The notes beneath the pieces are model-generated. The model did not search any database and was not told the origin of the DNA. It saw only the letters and a list, made by a program, of their open reading frames with translations. The position numbers were made by a program, and so were the translations under genes. A DNA stretch of 40,665 nt from a virus (lineage: Duplodnaviria; Heunggongvirae; Uroviricota; Caudoviricetes). The stretch lies in the IMG/VR virus record IMGVR_UViG_2687453300_000007; one strand, given 5' to 3'. Below, piece after piece: positions 6,084 to 22,616 of this stretch; position 1 is the stretch's first letter; each line of letters starts with the position of its first letter.

Positions 6084-8906
6084 ATGACGGCAGAGTACCT
6101 CAGGGACTGGCAACAACCGCGCCACGCAGTGGGGCGTGAAGGAACGGGGATCCCCGCTCCTGAATCCGCGCTTTCCTCCTGGCTGGATGCCTACCGGGCA
6201 GAGAACGAGCGCCGCCAGGAAATGGCTGATGCGGCGTTCTCAGCCACGCCGCTGGGCAACCTGATTAATAAAAGCCTGGACGCACAGGAAAAACAGGACA
6301 AAACCATCACACTGGCAGGAGACGCCAGAAAACAGGCACGTGGCGCGGTGGATGAAGCCATGGCCTCGCTGCGCCTGCTGCCGTCCTATCTGCGCGATCC
6401 GCTTATTCGCCACCTCTCCTTCCTGCGCAAAAAACAGGAAGCCGATCGCCGGAAAGGCAAAAAGAGCTGGCAGGCGGAACGCTATGCACGCGGAACCCTG
6501 CGCAAAATATTCGAACGTCTGGATAGCACTGACGGACGCTGGCTGACACCGGGTTATCGCTCCCTTGCCGGACGCGAACGCCTGGACGATTTGCTTTACC
6601 TGCCGCAGCTCAACAAACACCAGATACAGACGCTGGCCACCATGACGGCGGCGATGTTCAGCAGCACCTTCGAAAAACTCTGCGATGGCTTTGGCGCGAC
6701 CGATGGCGAGCTGACCATGGATGTAACCCTGAAGGCGTATCAGATGCTGGCCCGCATGGCGTTACACCTGCACGCCATGCCTCCACATTATGACGCACTG
6801 ACAACAGACAAAGACCGGAGGAACGAACCGGACACGGAGCTGCTGCCGGGCGCAATCCTTCGCCTGACCTGTGCGGAATGGTGGAAACGCAAACTGTGGC
6901 TGTTACGTTGCGAGTGGAGAGAAGAACAACTCCGCGCCGCCTGTCTGGTTTCCAGAAAAACATCACCCTATCTGAGCCAGGACGCGTTAAGCGAGTTTCG
7001 CGCACAGCGCGAGAAAACACGCGATTTCCTGAAAAGTTTCATGCTGGAAAATGAAGACGGGTTCACGATTGATCTCGAGACAGTGTATTACGCGGGAGTA
7101 AGTAACCCGGTTCACCGTAAGGCAGAAATGATGGCCACCATGAAGGGACTGGAACTTCTGGCCGAAGCCCGTGGCGACAAAGCGGTGTTTCTGACTGTCA
7201 CCTGCCCGTCAAAATACCACGCCACAACGGAGAACGGTCATCCGAATCCCAAATGGAACGGGGCCACAATGCGCGACTCCAGCGATTACCTGGTTAACAC
7301 GTTTTTTGCGGCGGTCCGCAAAAAACTGAACCGCGACGGCCTGCGCTGGTATGGCATCCGCACGGTGGAGCCTCATCATGACGGCACCGTGCACTGGCAT
7401 ATGATGGTCTTTGCACATCCGGAAGAAATCGACACCATTGTGTCCCATACCCGCGATATTGCCATTCAGGAAGACCGCCACGAGCTGGGCAATGATATTA
7501 CTCCGCGCTTTAAGGTGGAGTATGTCGACGGCTCAAAAGGCACGCCAACCAGCTACATCGCCACCTACATCGGAAAGAACCTGGACAGCCGCGCCGTGGA
7601 TGGCATCGACCCGAAAACGGGCAAGCCACGCGTGGACCACGAAACCGGAAAATCAATGGCCGAGAGCGTGGAGCGCGCCATCGGCTGGGCGCGCCTTCAC
7701 CGGGTCCGTCAGTTCCAGTTCTTTGGCATCCCCTCCCGTCAGGTGTGGCGTGAACTGCGCCGCCTTGCCAGCCAGATGGCACGCAATCCGGAAGGCCCGC
7801 AACGGCTGAAAGATGATGCAATGGATGCGGTACTCGCTGCCGCCGATGCCGGGTGTTTTGCCACCTACATTGAAAAACAGGGTGGCGTGCTTGTTCCACG
7901 CAAGGACTACCTGATTCGCACCGCCTACGACCTCGCAGATGAGCTGAACGATTACGGCGAACAGAGCGTACAGATTTACGGGATCTGGTCACCACTCATC
8001 GGGGAATCCTCCCGTGTGTGCACGCATCCGGATAACTGGAAGCTGGTAAGACGTAAACCGGAAGCGGAAGACAGCGCCCGCGAAAATGGTTTTGACCTTC
8101 AGGGCGGCCCTGCCGCCCCTTGGACTCGTGGCAATAACTGTCCCCGTGTACAGGAAACGGACAACAACGGGACAGAACAGCCGGAAGAACGGCCAGCACC
8201 GTGGCCGCAGCTCCCTGACGGCGTTGAAGTGAACGAATGGATGCGCTCACTGAAACGACACGAACGCCGGGCGCTGATGCGTTCGCTTCGTGACAAACAG
8301 GCAAAAAACAGCAGCGATGAAATGCAGAGCTGGACACAGAGCCGCAAACAGCAGCGGCCTTTGCCTGATAACCACGAATTACTCGCTAAAGAATGGCGGG
8401 AGTCTGCTGAATCTCTCGGCCTGCATATCGGTGAACAACAGATGCAGCACCTGTTACGGGGCGGCAGTCTGTACGTTGACGGCAGCATCATTGCACCGCA
8501 GGGATTTGAAATTGTACGCAAACCGGATACCCGCCCGGACAGCCGAATCACGCAGCTCTGGCAGCGCCTGAGCCGTAATCATGGCGTAAGCAGCACGGAG
8601 ATCCGCCATAACCCGGTCGCCAGCTATCTGGCACAGCTGGGGGCATCAGACCCTGAAGCCGCCGCACGCCTGGCATCCACACTTCAGCAGGGCCAGAACA
8701 CCATGAAAACACCCGTTACCGTGCTTTCTGACATGCTGCGCGCCATCCGCGACGCAGAGCACGCACAGAGAATCAGTGAAACCACTGAACGCGCCAGCCG
8801 CAAAGCAGACCTGCTGCGGGGTGGCCTGACCAGTGGAAACAAAAAACAGACAGAAACGGGACTTACGAATCCCGTAAATGAGCAAAAAACGCGCAGCGAT
8901 ATATGA
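6084..8906 (+). CDS. A: Rolling-circle replication initiation endonuclease (P2 gpA-like)
   Basis: 940-aa ORF carrying the HUH-type motif region …TVEPHHDGTVHWHMMVF… and tyrosine-bearing segment …YIATYIGKN… typical of P2 A-family proteins. Confidence 0.9.
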   Translation: MTAEYLRDWQQPRHAVGREGTGIPAPESALSSWLDAYRAENERRQEMADAAFSATPLGNLINKSLDAQEKQDKTITLAGDARKQARGAVDEAMASLRLLPSYLRDPLIRHLSFLRKKQEADRRKGKKSWQAERYARGTLRKIFERLDSTDGRWLTPGYRSLAGRERLDDLLYLPQLNKHQIQTLATMTAAMFSSTFEKLCDGFGATDGELTMDVTLKAYQMLARMALHLHAMPPHYDALTTDKDRRNEPDTELLPGAILRLTCAEWWKRKLWLLRCEWREEQLRAACLVSRKTSPYLSQDALSEFRAQREKTRDFLKSFMLENEDGFTIDLETVYYAGVSNPVHRKAEMMATMKGLELLAEARGDKAVFLTVTCPSKYHATTENGHPNPKWNGATMRDSSDYLVNTFFAAVRKKLNRDGLRWYGIRTVEPHHDGTVHWHMMVFAHPEEIDTIVSHTRDIAIQEDRHELGNDITPRFKVEYVDGSKGTPTSYIATYIGKNLDSRAVDGIDPKTGKPRVDHETGKSMAESVERAIGWARLHRVRQFQFFGIPSRQVWRELRRLASQMARNPEGPQRLKDDAMDAVLAAADAGCFATYIEKQGGVLVPRKDYLIRTAYDLADELNDYGEQSVQIYGIWSPLIGESSRVCTHPDNWKLVRRKPEAEDSARENGFDLQGGPAAPWTRGNNCPRVQETDNNGTEQPEERPAPWPQLPDGVEVNEWMRSLKRHERRALMRSLRDKQAKNSSDEMQSWTQSRKQQRPLPDNHELLAKEWRESAESLGLHIGEQQMQHLLRGGSLYVDGSIIAPQGFEIVRKPDTRPDSRITQLWQRLSRNHGVSSTEIRHNPVASYLAQLGASDPEAAARLASTLQQGQNTMKTPVTVLSDMLRAIRDAEHAQRISETTERASRKADLLRGGLTSGNKKQTETGLTNPVNEQKTRSDI

Positions 8907-8951
8907 AGCGCGCACAAAACAGGCAAAAACGGGATTTCAGAATCCCGTAAA
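8854..8951. repeat. Two copies of a 25-bp palindrome-containing element flanking the A stop codon
   Basis: AAACGGGACTTACGAATCCCGTAAA at 8854..8878 and AAACGGGATTTCAGAATCCCGTAAA at 8927..8951 (22/25 identical), each with 6-bp arms ACGGGA/TCCCGT. The second copy sits about 30 bp upstream of the ParM-like start. Confidence 0.6.
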
Positions 8952-8982
8952 CGATTAATTAATCAACATAAGGAAAAGCGAC

Positions 8983-9942
8983 ATGAAAATTTGTATCGAC
9001 GACGGCTCCACCAACATCAAGCTGGCATGGACTGAGAATGGCGAACGCCGCAACGCCATCAGCCCGAACAGCTTCAAGTCGGAATGGTCTGCGCCGTTCG
9101 GTGGCATGCAGCCCGCGAACTACATGCTTGATGGCGTGCGCTATGGTTTTGATCCGGTTAGCGATCGCTTTGTCCAGACGACCGACACGCAATACCAGTA
9201 CAGCGATGTGAATGTAATCGCCATTCATCACGCGCTGGTCAAATCAGGCATCACGCCACAGGAGGTGGATGTGGTTGTCACCCTGCCACTGAGCGAGTAT
9301 TTCGACACAAACGCACAGCCGGACATGGCCAACATCAACCGCAAAAAAGCGAACGTTATGCGCCCGGTGGAATACCAGAACGGCGAAGCATTCACTATCC
9401 GTAACGTGCGGGTTATGCCTGAATCCATTCCGGCTGGCTTTAAAGCACTGGCTGACATGAGTCCGTTTGAATCCCTGCTGATTGTGGATTTAGGCGGAAC
9501 CACGCTGGATGTGGCAAAGGTTCAAGGGCAACTGGCAGGTATCAGCCAGGTGTTTTGCGATCCACACGTAGGCGTTTCCCTGATGGCCGATGCCGTACTG
9601 TCGGTGATGGCCACTAACGGTATGCGCACCAGTCACCACATCGCCAATACCATTATCGAACATCGCCATGATGAAGCCTGGCTGCGCCAGCACATCCACA
9701 ATGACGCGCATTACGCCAGCCTGATGGCGGTTATTCGTGAAAAGGAAGAAACACTGAAACAACGCGTGATCCGCGCGCTGGCGGTTTTTTCGGGTTACGG
9801 GCGGGTGATGGTTGTCGGTGGAGGGGCGGAGATTGTGGCACCCGCTATCCGCGAAGTCTGCGGAGTTAATGCGACTTTCATCGCGGACGGGGTGCCACAG
9901 TTTGCTCTGGTTAATGGGCTGTACGCAATGGACAAGGAGTAA
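8983..9942 (+). CDS. parM: ParM/StbA-like actin-type segregation ATPase
   Basis: N-terminus MKICIDDGSTNIKLAW…ISPNSFK…YSDVNVIAIHHAL closely parallels plasmid R1 ParM as I recall it (MLVFIDDGSTNIKLQW…ISPNSFK…YSDVNVVAVHHAL). Also has the DxGGxT phosphate motif (IVDLGGTTLD). Confidence 0.8.
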   Translation: MKICIDDGSTNIKLAWTENGERRNAISPNSFKSEWSAPFGGMQPANYMLDGVRYGFDPVSDRFVQTTDTQYQYSDVNVIAIHHALVKSGITPQEVDVVVTLPLSEYFDTNAQPDMANINRKKANVMRPVEYQNGEAFTIRNVRVMPESIPAGFKALADMSPFESLLIVDLGGTTLDVAKVQGQLAGISQVFCDPHVGVSLMADAVLSVMATNGMRTSHHIANTIIEHRHDEAWLRQHIHNDAHYASLMAVIREKEETLKQRVIRALAVFSGYGRVMVVGGGAEIVAPAIREVCGVNATFIADGVPQFALVNGLYAMDKE

Positions 9943-9946
9943 ACCA

Positions 9947-10261
9947 ATGACGACACCAACCAGACGGATAAGTTTCTATCTGAAGCCCGCCGCCGTCAAG
10001 AGTGAACAGGAGGCGTGCAATTACCTCGATAGCCTGCCAGCCTCCGAACGCAGCCGCGCGCAACGCGCGGCCTTTCTGGCTGGGCTAGCGCTCATAAAGC
10101 GCAACCCAGCATTTGCCTACTGGATGGCCGAATGGCCAGAGGACAACCTCCCCTTCAATACCGTTAGCATCAAGGAAACATACCAGGATAATCAGCCTAG
10201 CGGAGTTGAATGCAATTTTTATAAAATAAAAAAGAATATTCAGACCTTATTCCCAGAATAA
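9947..10261 (+). CDS. parR: ParR-like centromere-binding protein (putative)
   Basis: ATG 9947 with AAGGAG SD 7 nt upstream, 5 bp after the parM stop. Segment RRISFYLKP…YLDSLPASERSRAQRAAFLAGLAL resembles the RHH N-terminus of R1 ParR (…LDSIPQGERSRLNRAALTAGLAL…). Confidence 0.65.
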   Translation: MTTPTRRISFYLKPAAVKSEQEACNYLDSLPASERSRAQRAAFLAGLALIKRNPAFAYWMAEWPEDNLPFNTVSIKETYQDNQPSGVECNFYKIKKNIQTLFPE

Positions 10262-10344
10262 TCTGATAATTGTATGTGAACTAATAAAATACAGACCAAC
10301 ACATCATTCTGGCACCCTTGCTAACAGGGTGCCAATGTTTCAAA

Positions 10345-11187
10345 TCATGATGAAATTGCCGAAGTTTTTTTATCGTGCTGAAGTACCGCAAATGCCATTA
10401 AAACCTCAAGAGAATAGCGGCGATAATACTTAACAAAACCATAATAAAATACTCGGGATGCAGCAATACAAAACAAGAGAAGAAAACAAAAAGGTAACAG
10501 TCTGATATTTATATCTATTAAAAAGGATAGAAGGAGCAGGAACATAAGCAACCAGACTGAAGCGAGAAAAACAAATGTAATGTTTCTACAAAAACCATAC
10601 AAAGCAACATAGTTTTGCATTTTCACCTGATGATTTTTAGAATGTTCATACACATAATGATAAGCAAGGCGAAAAAGATCGCCCCTCAAGCCCTTACGTC
10701 GATATAGCGTAGATACAGAAAAAACATTTATATAACCATCTCGTATTTGCGGCCAAAAGACTTTAATAAGTATAGAATGCAGTGTGGTTTTATGATGTTC
10801 TGCTTTATCAAAAGCTGATACAGGAAATAAAAAAACTCCACGAATAAAATTAACTATACTGAACTTAGTATTATGTCGTTTTATTTTCAGGGAGCTTCTT
10901 TTAGAAAACAGATAAATTGAAGGATACCCAAGTTTACTGTTCATGTATTTTTCAATTAAACAGGATGATAGAATAGATATGAAGTGACCTGAAATATATG
11001 ATAGAACGATTAATACCACATATATAAATACACTTATTATTTCTTTATATTTCAGGATATGGTTAAGAATACCTTCTATATAAACAGGGTTAATTTCAAT
11101 AGAAAACAAAAAAAGGATAAACAGGAATAACCCACCTGGAATTAGATAGCCCAAAAAGTCATAAAATGAAAACGGATTCTGTGTCAC
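10345..11187 (-). CDS. Hypothetical polytopic membrane protein (280 aa, about 4 TM)
   Basis: GTG start at 11187 with strong SD (AGGGGGAAG). Two N-terminal and two C-terminal hydrophobic helices flank a soluble stretch of about 125 aa. AT-rich with atypical codon usage. No family recognised. Confidence 0.6.
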   Translation of the reverse strand: MTQNPFSFYDFLGYLIPGGLFLFILFLFSIEINPVYIEGILNHILKYKEIISVFIYVVLIVLSYISGHFISILSSCLIEKYMNSKLGYPSIYLFSKRSSLKIKRHNTKFSIVNFIRGVFLFPVSAFDKAEHHKTTLHSILIKVFWPQIRDGYINVFSVSTLYRRKGLRGDLFRLAYHYVYEHSKNHQVKMQNYVALYGFCRNITFVFLASVWLLMFLLLLSFLIDINIRLLPFCFLLLFCIAASRVFYYGFVKYYRRYSLEVLMAFAVLQHDKKTSAISS

Positions 11188-11226
11188 ACTTCCCCCTGTG
11201 TTACTTGTAAATTAAAGGGTAAAACA

Positions 11227-11724
11227 TTATTTGTTTTTCCGTAAAGGATTAGCTTTCCATCTTCTTACTAACCATTCGAATTCTTGATATGTAGTATCCG
11301 AATTAATGCTTTCTCTGATTGCTTTAATTAATGGCTCGGCAATATCATATGTCTCTACAACTGTTGTGTAAGATGTTCTTTTTATCATTTTTTCATCATA
11401 AATACCTTCACGAATACTTACAGCAACTCGCTCGTAAAAATTTAAAATATATTGAAATTTTCGACGCTCGGCCATTTCTTCATCTGTTATTATGCAACCA
11501 TCACAAGGAAAAACATAAGAACGAAATGATTTGCCTGAACGATGCACTTGTTTCAGGGTATGCAATGACTCTATATATTGCATATCTTGCCGACTCTCAA
11601 AAAGAAAGTTGGCCGTTTGAGTTTTTTTTGCGGTACGCACATTGTAGATAATGGTTCCAATGGCAACCAAAACGCCAAGCAGAACAATAGCATTGCTGAT
11701 GATTTGTAGTGTTATTGGGTTCAT
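11227..11724 (-). CDS. Hypothetical single-pass membrane protein (165 aa)
   Basis: N-terminal TM helix (ITLQIISNAIVLLGVLVAIGTIIY) followed by a soluble domain of about 135 aa. Lies 39 bp upstream of the 280-aa gene on the same strand. AT-rich. Confidence 0.6.
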   Translation of the reverse strand: MNPITLQIISNAIVLLGVLVAIGTIIYNVRTAKKTQTANFLFESRQDMQYIESLHTLKQVHRSGKSFRSYVFPCDGCIITDEEMAERRKFQYILNFYERVAVSIREGIYDEKMIKRTSYTTVVETYDIAEPLIKAIRESINSDTTYQEFEWLVRRWKANPLRKNK

Positions 11725-11738
11725 CCTATTTCATCCAT

Positions 11739-11765
11739 AAAAAAGGCGGGGAGCAAATCCCCGCC
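11739..11765 (-). terminator. Intrinsic terminator/attenuator immediately upstream of the 165-aa gene
   Basis: On the minus strand: 8-bp GC stem GGCGGGGA / TCCCCGCC with a 5-nt loop, followed by TTTTTTAT. It ends 14 nt before the ATG at 11724. Confidence 0.6.
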
Positions 11766-11785
11766 TCATTAGAGGTCAACGTAGC

Positions 11786-11821
11786 TTAGAAACCATCAAA
11801 TTCATCATACATTTTTTTCAT
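11786..11821 (-). CDS. Putative 11-codon leader peptide (MKKMYDEFDGF)
   Basis: Minus-strand ATG 11821 preceded by GAGGGGG SD at 5-nt spacing. Stop at 11786..11788, about 20 nt upstream of the terminator stem. Confidence 0.3.
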   Translation of the reverse strand: MKKMYDEFDGF

Positions 11822-11921
11822 ATCAACCCCCTCATAGAAATCATAACCACGTTTTGTGGTTTTTGTGACGTATAAACTACATCAAAGGCAAGCCACGGTC
11901 AAATATATAGGCATGCTTACC

Positions 11922-12020
11922 TGCACAAAAGTGCACAAATTTGCACAATTTTTTTGAACGACTTTTTACCCTTCCGGCCCGCATGGCGGCTGGATCCGTC
12001 AAGGATCCGTGCGTGCACAA
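11922..12020. repeat. Iterated TGCACAA heptamers at 10-bp phasing, plus GGATCCGT direct repeat
   Basis: TGCACAA at 11922, 11932 and 11942 (exact 10-bp period) and again at 12014. GGATCCGT at 11992 and 12003. Located in non-coding DNA between the cargo operon and the orphan gene. Confidence 0.55.
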
Positions 12021-12320
12021 AAAAACGCGCTTTTTCTGCGCGCAGGTGACGGGGGAACAGCCCGCGTTTCAGGGGGTAAATAGCATTCCCTGAACGATGT
12101 CGCAGAGACACAACAGAATGGCCATATTTCTCACGCTGAGCATGAAAAAGGCGTGAGGGCTTTTGATTTGATGGGGTGAAAGGTAAGGCCGTCAAAATCG
12201 CACTGAGGCAGCGAGAACATGCAGTCAACGCGGTGGAATTGCGTAAGAGTCTGACCGTCGATGGTGGCGATAAACTGGAAGGCGTCGTGAAATTATCTGA
12301 TTGATACAGGAGCTGGAGAG

Positions 12321-12347
12321 CCGGGGCATAAATTTTTTATGCCCCGG
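12321..12347. repeat. Near-perfect 27-bp palindrome
   Basis: CCGGGGCATAAATTTTTTATGCCCCGG, with no flanking U-tract on either strand. About 100 bp upstream of the 174-aa gene. Confidence 0.5.
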
Positions 12348-12447
12348 CGAAGCAGCAGACAAGCGAAGCGCGTCAGCGATACGGCACCTTGCCGACCATA
12401 CTTCATAAGTGCAAAATACGAGCAAAGAAATCAATGGAGGCTGTCTT

Positions 12448-12972
12448 ATGGTCATTAATTACAAGCAGTTAAGAGAAAAACGGGAGCAGGTAAAGGAGAG
12501 CTTTCGCCGCAATGAAGATCTGACCCCGCTTGTACGCCTTGCCCAGGGCATTGTTGATGCTTATGAAATCTCGCTGGAGCTGCCATCACAGACCTGGACA
12601 GATAGCGACGGTAATCGCCAGCATTACGTTTCATGCGGACTGGAAGCAGCCGAAGGATTTCGCAGAATGCCTTTATCCCAGATCCCTGCCGCTACCCCCA
12701 AAGCACGGGGCAGCAATGATGAGCGAAAACTGACTTTTAGTATTGAAACGGTGGTTGACGACACACCTGGCGAAGTCGCGTTCGTGCACACTCCTGTTTC
12801 GATCGCAATGTATAACGATGAAATACAGGTTCGCGTTAATAATAATATCGTGCCACTTAAAGAAGGTAATTCACCCTACACCACCGTTTGTGAAGCCATT
12901 CAATATTACGTTCTCTCTGAAATTGATAATCTCAAGCCTGACGGCACCCAGAAAATGGTTCAACTCTGGTAA
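12448..12972 (+). CDS. Hypothetical protein (174 aa) between the cos region and portal gene
   Basis: ATG 12448 with GGAGG SD 7 nt upstream (the track ORF starts at an upstream GTG). Convergent with Q. No family recognised. Confidence 0.5.
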   Translation: MVINYKQLREKREQVKESFRRNEDLTPLVRLAQGIVDAYEISLELPSQTWTDSDGNRQHYVSCGLEAAEGFRRMPLSQIPAATPKARGSNDERKLTFSIETVVDDTPGEVAFVHTPVSIAMYNDEIQVRVNNNIVPLKEGNSPYTTVCEAIQYYVLSEIDNLKPDGTQKMVQLW

Positions 12973-20600: not shown

Positions 20601-20742
20601 CCCACCCACATGGGGAAACCTCGGAATATGGGGCGACCGCCTTCTGGATGCACTGGAAACCTGTAACGCGGATAAACGGGCCATTGCTGAACTGGATAAG
20701 AGAATAGCCGAACTGACACACCAGACGGGAGTAACACAATGA
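20431..20742 (+). CDS. o-spanin (Rz1/LysC-like lipoprotein)
   Basis: Alternate-frame ORF overlapping the i-spanin 3' end. Signal peptide with lipobox LLTGC, then a proline-rich segment. The start may instead be the internal ATG at 20461. Confidence 0.55.
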   Translation: MNSYATILQKMNAPTLCLTLVLLTGCAGTQNAPGPAPSVRLIPQTLTMPVTPPPFPDPPTWGNLGIWGDRLLDALETCNADKRAIAELDKRIAELTHQTGVTQ

Positions 20743-22616
20743 CCAGTAAGAACTTTGCACTGATTACAGCCATGACACAGGCTGAACTGACTCAAAAGGT
20801 GAATGAACATCTTGCGAAAGGGTGGCATCTTCAGGGGGAGACGCGGGTTGCCTACGAACCCGGCACCCCGTGGTATCTAATGCAGGCAATGGTGGCCGAT
20901 GGCACTACAGACATCTCACCTGATTCCCCCCAGCACGGCAGCGTGCCGGAGTGGTATTACGTGGTGGTACTTGCTGGTCAATCCAATGCCATGTCATATG
21001 GTGAGGGAATGCCGCTGCCGGATTCTTACGATGCGCCCCACCCACGCATTAAGCAACTGGCCCGTCGCAACACAGTGACTCCCGGTGGTAAAGCATGCGC
21101 ATTTAACGACATCATTCCGGCAGACCACTGCCTGCATGATGTTCAGGATATGAGCGCACTGAATCACCCGAATGCAGACCTGAGCAAAGGGCAGTATGGC
21201 TGTGTCGGACAGGGCTTGCATATTGCCAAACGCCTGTTGCCTTACATTCCACAGAATGCCGGGATTTTACTGGTTCCATGCTGTCGTGGTGGTTCGGCAT
21301 TCACCCAGGGCGCGGAGGGGACATTCAGCGAGTCCACAGGAGCCAGTCAGGATTCGGCTCGCTGGGGTGTGGGTAAACCTTTATATCAGGACCTGATTTT
21401 GCGCACGAAGGCCGCATTGCAGAAAAACCCAAAAAACATGCTGCTGGCCGTATGCTGGATGCAGGGCGAATTTGACATGAGCGCCGCTACGTACTCACAG
21501 CAACCTCCGCTGTTTACGGCCATGCTGAAACAGTTTCGTGCGGACATTACCGAGTTTAACACGCAGTGTCATGGAGGCAGAGCGGCAAGTGTGCCATGGA
21601 TTTGTGGTGACACGACGTATTACTGGAAAAACACCTACGGCACGCAGTACGACACCATTTACGGGGCGTACAAAAACAGGGAGAGCGACAACGTTTTCTT
21701 TGTGCCGTTCCTGACCGATGGTAGTGGCAACAATACCTCCACCAACGCACCAACGGAAGATCCGGATGCTGCAAGTGAGGGATATTACGGTTCGGCATCC
21801 CGAACGAACAAAAACTGGGTATCATCAAATCGCCAGACGCATTTCAGCTCATGGGCGCGTCGTGGCATTATTCCCGATCGTATGGCAACCGCTATTCTGA
21901 ACGTAGCCGGTCGCACCTTAGCCTTCATCAGTGGTAAGGCACCGGAAATCAAACCCTCGCCCGGCGGCGACACGCCATCGGGGCCGTCTGAAGATGCATC
22001 CGTACGCACAATCTCCCTGTTGCCGACAGCCGGAGATGCTGCTGCGCAGGGCTGGAGCATTAAGAATGGCGGAATTCAGTTGTCAGAGGGTGTATTTAAG
22101 ATCACCAAGCAGAGCAATAAAGCCTGGTCCCTGACGCGCCCGGTGGATGACGCAGTCTCCCTGCTGACACGGGGTGGCAGACTGAGCTGTAAGTTTCGAC
22201 TGTCAGGCGCACTGACCAACAATCAGTTCGGTCTGGGAATTTATCTGTATACCGATGTAGCGTTACCTGACGTCGTGGCGATGACCGGGACTGGTAACCC
22301 GTTCCTGATGTCGTTCTTCACCCAGACCACAGACGGCAAACTGAATCTGATGCATCACAAGAAAGCAGGAAACACAAAGTTGGGCGAGTTCGGGAATTAC
22401 AGTAACGACTGGCAGACGCTGGAGCTGGTGTTCACCGCCGGCAGTGCCACGGTTACTCCGAAACTGAATGGAGTGGCTGGCCCGGCATTCCAGGTCATAA
22501 AAGACAGTCTGACACTGGGGCTGAATGCGCTGACGTTAACTGATATCACTAAAAATGCCGCGTACGGCGTCGATATCGGCAGCCTGGTGCTGGAAATCAA
22601 TAATCCCGCAGCATAA
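20739..22616 (+). CDS. SGNH-family sialate O-acetylesterase-like protein (NanS-p-like) with N-terminal DUF1737-like region
   Basis: 625 aa. GQSNA motif (…VVVLAGQSNAMSYGEG…) typical of 9-O-acetylesterase/SASA-domain enzymes; N-terminus MTSKNFALITAMTQAELTQKVNEHLAKGWHLQGE… as in prophage NanS-p proteins. Inserted between the lysis genes and R. Confidence 0.75.
   Translation: MTSKNFALITAMTQAELTQKVNEHLAKGWHLQGETRVAYEPGTPWYLMQAMVADGTTDISPDSPQHGSVPEWYYVVVLAGQSNAMSYGEGMPLPDSYDAPHPRIKQLARRNTVTPGGKACAFNDIIPADHCLHDVQDMSALNHPNADLSKGQYGCVGQGLHIAKRLLPYIPQNAGILLVPCCRGGSAFTQGAEGTFSESTGASQDSARWGVGKPLYQDLILRTKAALQKNPKNMLLAVCWMQGEFDMSAATYSQQPPLFTAMLKQFRADITEFNTQCHGGRAASVPWICGDTTYYWKNTYGTQYDTIYGAYKNRESDNVFFVPFLTDGSGNNTSTNAPTEDPDAASEGYYGSASRTNKNWVSSNRQTHFSSWARRGIIPDRMATAILNVAGRTLAFISGKAPEIKPSPGGDTPSGPSEDASVRTISLLPTAGDAAAQGWSIKNGGIQLSEGVFKITKQSNKAWSLTRPVDDAVSLLTRGGRLSCKFRLSGALTNNQFGLGIYLYTDVALPDVVAMTGTGNPFLMSFFTQTTDGKLNLMHHKKAGNTKLGEFGNYSNDWQTLELVFTAGSATVTPKLNGVAGPAFQVIKDSLTLGLNALTLTDITKNAAYGVDIGSLVLEINNPAA

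Follow-up and report, generated by a model that had tools for sequence, protein, structure and literature searches.

A ParM/ParR-type gene pair in the conserved backbone of P88-like temperate phages: a candidate DNA-positioning module with a non-canonical cis site

This study concerns a stretch of 40,665 nucleotides of tailed-phage DNA (IMG/VR record IMGVR_UViG_2687453300_000007, Caudoviricetes; referred to here, at its full length, as the window) and, within it, two adjacent genes, parM and parR (together parMR), which follow the replication gene A of a P2-like prophage. To judge from the sequences, the first open reading frame (ORF) of the pair is an R1-family ParM and the second is a ParR/StbB adaptor composed of a ribbon-helix-helix (RHH)-type N-terminal domain, a hypervariable linker and a C-terminal tail. 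The pair is not variable cargo but part of the backbone that P88-like (Xuanwuvirus) phages and related P2-like temperate phages conserve. We consider the chances to be about even that parMR is a functional type II (ParM/ParR, R1 family) module which positions the circular extrachromosomal genomes of these phages.

The segment that holds the pair (8854-10261) is 100% identical to part of a prophage of Escherichia coli ST131 (strains such as EC958) that adjoins dmsA. The EC958 annotation of this prophage lists an integrase, a Cox-family protein, gene A (under the name "replication endonuclease") and genes of the P2 type for portal, terminase, capsid, lysis and tail, which confirms the view, taken in a preliminary description of this DNA, that the pair is carried by a chromosomally integrated P2-like prophage with an integrase. 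Its carriers in phage collections are P88 and related phages of the genus Xuanwuvirus (family Peduoviridae). The parM gene starts 76 bp past the gene A stop, with a Shine-Dalgarno sequence (AAGGA) at 8970-8974, and the parR ATG lies 5 bp beyond the last base of the parM stop codon and is preceded by AAGGAG at 9934-9939 (Table 1).

The assignment of the first protein is straightforward. It matches the Pfam families StbA_N (2.7e-82) and ParM C-domain (1.1e-68), both far over their gathering scores, and PHROG 691 ("partition protein"), and its residues 2-316 align with the structures of R1 ParM (1mwk and others) at an E value of 1e-92; over its full length it is 47% identical to R1 ParM. Relative to 1mwk, the phosphate-1 (IDDGSTNIK), phosphate-2 (DLGGTTLD) and adenosine (GGGAE) motifs of the nucleotide-binding site are all kept, and they are invariant in the eight phage-type ParMs that were compared. 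The resemblance to R1 ParM that had been noticed at the N-terminus is borne out by these matches, and the best of them are to ParM itself rather than to other ATPases of the actin fold. The likeness extends to the layout of the prototype type II system, ParMRC (parA/stb) of R1/R100: there too, parR directly follows parM, the ParR proteins fall into the same Pfam family, and the cis-acting repeats lie upstream of parM. Unlike ParMRC, the module described here resides on a chromosomally integrating P2-like phage, directly after gene A.

The second protein matches Pfam Plasmid_stab_B (the StbB/ParR family) at 7.7e-29. Its only relative in the PDB is the RHH protein ParR of pB171 (2jd3), and this match is weak (E 0.012 with the single sequence and E 0.005 with a profile of 34 sequences). 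The same structure ranked first, again weakly (E 0.64), in a Foldseek search with an AlphaFold2 monomer model whose mean pLDDT (predicted local distance difference test score) is 63. In this model, helices at residues 20-29, 32-52 and 54-61 are followed by a linker of low confidence and a C-terminal helix at residues 90-101; the helices fit a β-α-α topology, and the β-strand is absent from the monomer model. Together with the family match, the weak best match to 2jd3 agrees with the earlier impression of a ParR-like protein with an RHH N-terminus.

Among 34 alleles of this ParR, conservation is concentrated at the two ends of the molecule. In the predicted strand, R6, R7, I8, F10, Y11, L12 and K13 are invariant and T5, S9 and P14 are at least 90% conserved, as are N97, I98, F102 and P103 in the tail. 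The alignment columns of residues 66-93 have no consensus residue, the pLDDT falls below 50 at residues 72-87, and in the linker the nonsynonymous divergence (dN) reaches 0.8-0.9 with the synonymous divergence (dS) saturated. The tail lines up with the C-terminal ends of ParRs from plasmids, among them that of R1 (...TKKNAMKLIN), with which it shares the motif K-K-N-I/A-x-x-L-F/I. In R1 it is this tail of ParR that binds ParM (PDB 4a62). With 104 residues as against the 116 of R1 ParR, the phage protein is the shorter of the two, and the segment equivalent to R1 residues ~66-82 is missing from it.

The preliminary description had placed the pair in a variable cargo slot and had considered it a possible remnant of exchange with a plasmid, and neither suggestion is supported by the distribution and preservation of the pair, followed here through 50,697 phage records, 5426 complete E. 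coli genomes and the viral contigs of IMG/VR. Among the phage records, this type of ParM is found in exactly 14 P88-like phages and in phage D6. The 14 are exactly those records whose gene A is >85% identical to that of the window, and no match to this ParM was found in the other 368 phage records that bear a gene A homologue. The StbA-type protein of D6, the only other ParM of this family in these records, is 48% identical. D6 (a 91-kb record) is presumably a P1-like extrachromosomal plasmid-prophage, in which a partition system is expected, whereas the phage described here integrates. In E. coli, the segment is present in 1304 complete genomes (~24%), at 1442 chromosomal places and 2 on plasmids, and it is covered to at least 80% in 1274 genomes, compared to 1321 genomes with this gene A (~96%). 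Roughly 10% of the carrier genomes hold two or three copies of the segment.

Both genes are also well preserved. In IMG/VR, parM is an intact ORF of 319 codons in all 80 contigs, 77 of 78 parR copies have their full length, and the pairwise dN/dS of parM is 0.01-0.14 at a dS of 0.05-0.2. Beyond E. coli, ParM homologues with 54-62% identity were found in Plesiomonas shigelloides, Hafnia, Serratia and Enterobacter, all of them in P2-like prophages and in the same slot, with the shared order gene A, (0-2 small ORFs), parM, parR, cargo, (ogr), portal, terminase. Because ParMs this far diverged keep the same slot in four other genera, the linkage of the pair to these phages appears to be old. A scan of GTDB species genomes with the single ParM yielded three near-identical loci only, and the distant relatives were reached through protein-database and contig look-ups, which also led to ParM relatives of ~50% identity in a Dickeya integrative and conjugative element (ICE) and in a plasmid-like region of Mangrovibacter. 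In a neighbour-joining tree, the phage ParMs fall into two neighbouring clades, and the R1-type plasmid ParMs lie outside both; with no support values attached to the tree, this separation is only suggestive. It could still be argued that parMR is a non-functional relic of a past recombination with a plasmid, given that its nearest non-phage relatives are plasmid and ICE ParMs (46-57% identity). We regard this as very improbable: with both ORFs intact across the population, a dN/dS this low and the same slot occupied in five genera, the comparative data effectively refute it.

The preliminary description had pointed to nearby repeats as the place where a centromere resembling parC might be found. 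Suitable repeats do lie just upstream of parM. They are two direct repeat copies at a spacing of 73 bp, each holding a 20-bp palindrome, and position 8854, at which the segment had been taken to start, coincides with the first copy. The palindrome pattern has these two sites in the whole 40.6-kb window and nowhere else (0.06 expected by chance). Its CGGGA...TCCCG core is kept in 78 viral contigs, with the central 4 nt varying among relatives (TCAG or TAAA). The second palindrome lies 35-54 bp ahead of the parM start, where it would overlap a local promoter if there is one. At the equivalent position, Plesiomonas has two 26-nt repeats with a spacing of 72 bp that contain GGGA...CCC, and a single long inverted repeat is found in Serratia and Enterobacter. 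A repeat tool detected the classical 11-bp iteron arrays in R1-type and Mangrovibacter plasmid-type loci, and a similar array in the Dickeya ICE was seen by eye only. Across these loci, the class of site tracks the sequence of the ParR β-strand (TRRISFYL, NRKISFYL, RRKI(M/N)FYL and, in R1, RRTIAFKL), and for this reason we take the two palindromes, with their four half-sites, to be the likely ParR sites and to constitute a reduced parC. Such a site would differ from that of R1, where ten 11-bp direct iterons flank the promoter. A precedent for a smaller centromere is provided by srpC of the SXT/R391 ICEs, which works with four 13-bp repeats only, bound as pairs (PMC4489591). These four repeats are comparable to the four half-sites seen here, and by analogy a centromere smaller than that of R1 is possible.

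Alternatively, the palindromes could act as hairpins in the transcript or in single-stranded DNA, serving as elements of mRNA processing or stability, as minus-strand terminators or as lagging-strand signals of rolling-circle replication, with the centromere located elsewhere or absent; this would be compatible with other explanations of the module. The folding energy of both palindromes lies between -9 and -10.7 kcal/mol (z about -3). Each of them precedes a T-rich run on the minus strand and was called terminator-like there, and two frequent variants of palindrome 2 (A1 to G and C18 to T) preserve G-U pairing on the + strand. The equivalents in Plesiomonas and Hafnia, however, have stems of 3-4 bp and loops of 10 nt and for the most part fold no better than shuffled sequences, and they nonetheless keep their GGGA...TCCC cores and a spacing of ~72-73 bp. 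In addition, a frequent change in palindrome 1 (T7 to C) is uncompensated, a minus-strand terminator is not needed here because the convergent cargo genes end at another hairpin (10310-10334), and a permissive Rfam scan of positions 8000-12500 returned nothing relevant. A role as hairpins in place of ParR binding therefore seems unlikely to us, whichever of these functions is considered. Between the second palindrome and parM lies a further, AT-rich palindrome (8953-8964), whose core, ATTAATCAA, is found at the same position in the single Plesiomonas and Hafnia loci that were examined. It is possibly a -10 region or an extra operator; this assignment is weak because the consensus promoter scan gave no sigma-70 site there.

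Most relatives match the window only up to position 10001 (parR codon 18). Beyond this codon, parR falls into deep allele types; the types A (found in this window) and B (found in P88) share 56% identity, and dS is saturated in codons 19-65, beside a parM that is 98-100% conserved. At 10150-10200, the GC content falls from ~0.57 to ~0.35, and it stays low to ~11900. The first 400 nt past parR form 19 unrelated clusters (70 or so loci); within a cluster, a single ParR type occurs and the linker type hardly varies. The simplest reading of these patterns is that exchange of cargo proceeds by recombination in the conserved 5' end of parR, so that the 3' part of the gene moves with the cargo, and that the strand of the RHH domain and the candidate ParM-binding tail are kept in every case. 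The true variable slot thus starts within the 3' part of parR or after the gene. A pairing of ParR types A and B with different palindrome variants was considered and rejected, as both types are found with the same variants. Because the types share palindrome variants, the diversity of parR is better explained by linkage to swapped cargo than by a changed DNA specificity.

Divergence of this kind is common for determinants of specificity and conflict, and it invites the proposal that parMR is expressed in the lysogen for conflict or regulation and not for moving DNA, for example with ParR as a repressor or exclusion factor directed against related superinfecting phages or with the pair as a "fitness" factor for the host. 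Apart from the contrast between a saturated dS in parR codons 19-65 and the dS of 0.05-0.2 in parM, this proposal can draw on the position of the pair at the border of a cargo and defence hotspot between gene A and the portal gene, and on the homologue in the Citrobacter rodentium phage phiSM, which was listed as a "fitness" cargo gene in a reannotation (PMC6456863). We nevertheless hold it to be improbable, in the general form as well as in these examples. Both ParR types have identical predicted DNA-contact residues and occur with identical palindromes, and since the 3' types are tightly linked to the type of cargo, recombination during cargo swaps accounts for the diversity. In PADLOC, neither ParM nor ParR matched a defence family at E <= 0.01. 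Finally, the ParM ATPase is complete and under strong purifying selection, which points to a function of the filament.

A DNA-positioning module, the function that we favor, could operate as follows, and we infer its DNA binding, filament formation, time of expression and benefit to the phage alike. The genes lie on the same strand as the early replication gene A and directly downstream of it. Since parMR is co-oriented with the early genes, with no + strand terminator found between gene A and parM and no promoter of its own detected, it would be expected to be expressed with the early lytic operon, at a time when the phage genome exists as an extrachromosomal circle after infection or excision. 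ParR dimers would use their N-terminal RHH domains to bind the two palindromes (35-127 bp upstream of parM) and would probably also autoregulate any local promoter. The C-terminal tail of ParR would then capture the ends of ATP-ParM filaments, and the growing filaments would push ParR-bound circular phage genomes apart. Replication of the P2 type proceeds as a rolling circle initiated by gene A and yields monomeric circles, which are also the substrate of packaging; a ParR/ParM machine could act on these circles just as on plasmids. Like AlpAC in the case of prophage CGP3 of Corynebacterium glutamicum, the module would in this way spread or position genomes that are replicating and competent for packaging.

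AlpAC, with its site alpS, is the best functional analogy to the phage module. It consists of a prophage-encoded actin-like ATPase and a co-transcribed DNA-binding adaptor that binds repeats upstream of the operon, and it is induced early and required for efficient replication of the excised circular CGP3 DNA (PMC4446434, PMC5539076). Shared features are the integrated prophage, the co-orientation with early genes and the upstream repeats, with early expression and adaptor binding being predictions in our case. The two systems differ in that AlpAC belongs to an actinobacterial host and another type of phage, its adaptor gene comes first, and alpS comprises 24 short TTAAnnG repeats. This comparison is one of function and is drawn from the literature, whereas the proteins described here are close members of the R1 family.

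A second known system suggests a different use of the same machinery. SrpMRC of the SXT/R391 ICEs is likewise a type II partition module on a chromosome-resident element that replicates as a rolling circle with an HUH endonuclease, and its role is to stabilize the excised form in dividing cells (PMC4489591). It differs in that its element is an ICE and not a phage, SrpM is distant from R1 ParM, and SrpR is without ParR homology (PMC4489591). By analogy, parMR could stabilize the unintegrated phage circle in dividing cells, be it before an infecting genome has integrated, during a carrier or pseudolysogenic state or upon reversible excision, which would make these phages in part "facultative plasmids". 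That SrpMRC does this for an integrating element with HUH-endonuclease rolling-circle replication (PMC4489591) speaks for such a role, as do the origin of ParMRC as a segregation device for low-copy circles and one circular PLSDB record of 34,461 bp that is a complete P88-like genome with integrase. The chromosomal location of 1442 of the 1444 places in complete E. coli genomes speaks against it, the lone circular record may be induced phage DNA assembled as a circle, and parMR would be off under an established repressor if the early lytic promoter alone drives its expression. Nor is gene A rolling-circle replication known to support stable carriage as a plasmid. Both the inheritance role and the settings proposed for it thus appear rather unlikely, without being negligible. 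The circular record itself (NZ_CP148288.1), which is filed as a "plasmid" of an E. coli from a cat, also contains parM and parR and is either excised or induced phage DNA caught by the assembly or a hint of episomal carriage.

Several observations weigh against a role of parMR in positioning phage DNA. First, the region upstream of parM lacks the canonical parC, in which the promoter stands between two sets of five 11-bp iterons, and two palindromes may be too few for a ParR ring like that of R1. In Hafnia, the paired elements are degenerate and visible by eye only, and the hairpin folding and terminator-like minus strand of the palindromes count in the same direction. Second, a scan between gene A and parM found no sigma-70 consensus promoter, which makes the proposed time of expression a guess. 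Third, a lytic cycle that is over before the cell divides does not obviously call for segregation. Finally, several hundred truncated ParM members (188-261 aa), some of them on megabase contigs, occur in the protein clusters P0006, P0009 and P0017; they may reflect decayed prophages or contig ends. A stronger proposition is that a P2-like lineage, which occurs in no fewer than five genera of enterobacteria and in ~24% of the complete E. coli genomes, depends on its own actin-like cytoskeleton, acting through a minimal two-palindrome centromere, for organizing rolling-circle replication or packaging or for ensuring the inheritance of the circle. In that case, the deep ParR types might represent partition "incompatibility" groups among co-resident prophages. 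We advance this tentatively and consider it doubtful, though within reach.

The genes themselves are not new to annotation. RefSeq/PGAP names the products "plasmid segregation protein ParM" and "plasmid partitioning/stability family protein", PHROGs lists both as "partition protein", and the record of phage P88 is also annotated with ParM and a partition protein. In the literature on ParM/ParR in P2-like, P88 and Xuanwuvirus phages, we found no functional study and only mentions at the level of annotation. The preliminary description had called a partition pair unexpected on an integrated phage; given these annotations and the precedents of AlpAC (PMC4446434) and SrpMRC (PMC4489591), this was overstated. 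The phage parMR is widespread and well conserved, its context is unusual but not unprecedented, and its cis site is non-canonical.

If the module is active, about a quarter of sequenced E. coli strains, including the pandemic ST131, carry an actin filament system owned by a phage, and the principle known from AlpAC and SrpMRC, in which integrating elements use plasmid-type partition while extrachromosomal, would extend to the classical P2 family. Should the dependence on an own cytoskeleton prove true, it would be the first of its kind to be demonstrated among the integrating tailed phages of Gram-negative bacteria. An active module would also offer a tractable model in E. coli, with a naturally minimal centromere for asking how few ParR sites can engage ParM. 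Phage P88 is inducible and forms plaques (PMC6456863). A practical consequence is that ParM/ParR genes are unsafe as plasmid markers in the binning of E. coli genomes and metagenomes.

Table 1. Coordinates of parMR, its candidate cis elements and the flanking genes in the window.
Feature	Position	Strand	Description
Gene A	6084-8906		940 aa; Pfam Phage_GPA 4.9e-131
Repeat copy 1 (42 nt)	8840-8881		Holds 20-bp palindrome ACGGGACTTACGAATCCCGT at 8856-8875; inside the last gene A codons; candidate ParR site
Repeat copy 2 (42 nt)	8913-8954		Holds palindrome ACGGGATTTCAGAATCCCGT at 8929-8948; candidate ParR operator/centromere site
AT-rich palindrome GATTAATTAATC	8953-8964		-30 to -19 of parM; read directly from aligned upstream regions
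parM	8983-9942	+	319 aa, ATG start; actin-fold ATPase, R1 ParM family
parR	9947-10261	+	104 aa; Pfam Plasmid_stab_B
parR codons 1-65	9947-10141	+	RHH-type DNA-binding domain (Plasmid_stab_B); predicted strand TRRISFYLKP, then helices
parR codons 66-89	10142-10213	+	Hypervariable linker, predicted disordered (alignment, pLDDT, dN)
parR codons 90-104 and stop	10214-10261	+	C-terminal amphipathic helix YKIKKNIQTLFPE; candidate ParM-binding tail
GC-rich hairpin, 9-bp stem	10310-10334		Between convergent parR and the 280-aa cargo gene
280-aa cargo protein	10345-11187	-	Membrane-spanning by eye; PHROG 12528; weak PADLOC Csx27-like match (1e-5)
DUF4760 cargo protein	11227-11724	-	PHROG 2284

Downstream of the pair, an AT-rich island (10150-11900; GC 0.26-0.40 as against ~0.57 around it), which begins inside the last ~100 nt of parR, constitutes the real cargo between gene A and the portal gene. 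Its two minus-strand genes may form a defence or exclusion pair. In related phages, the same slot holds HicAB, a KAP NTPase, an M78 peptidase/HTH pair and other genes. The hairpin that separates parR from the cargo folds at -16.4 and -18.3 kcal/mol on the two strands (z about -3.5) and is likely a bidirectional terminator that ends the parMR transcript. What looks like a second cargo position lies between the lysis and tail genes (20739-22616), where a 625-aa ORF corresponds to a DUF6645 protein in the EC958 annotation.

Upstream of the pair, gene A has a C-terminal extension (codons 797-940; 8472-8906), for the alignment with its counterparts in other Peduoviridae covers residues 9-796 only. 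The extension was considered as a third part of the module and dropped, since it is without a homologue in the Plesiomonas, Hafnia, Serratia and Enterobacter loci. Lastly, a parM locus of the E. coli P88-like type (97% identity) occurs under a Gram-positive label, in contig NZ_JBQPOM010000071.1 of "Vagococcus sp. WN89Y", most likely through contamination or a mislabelled assembly.

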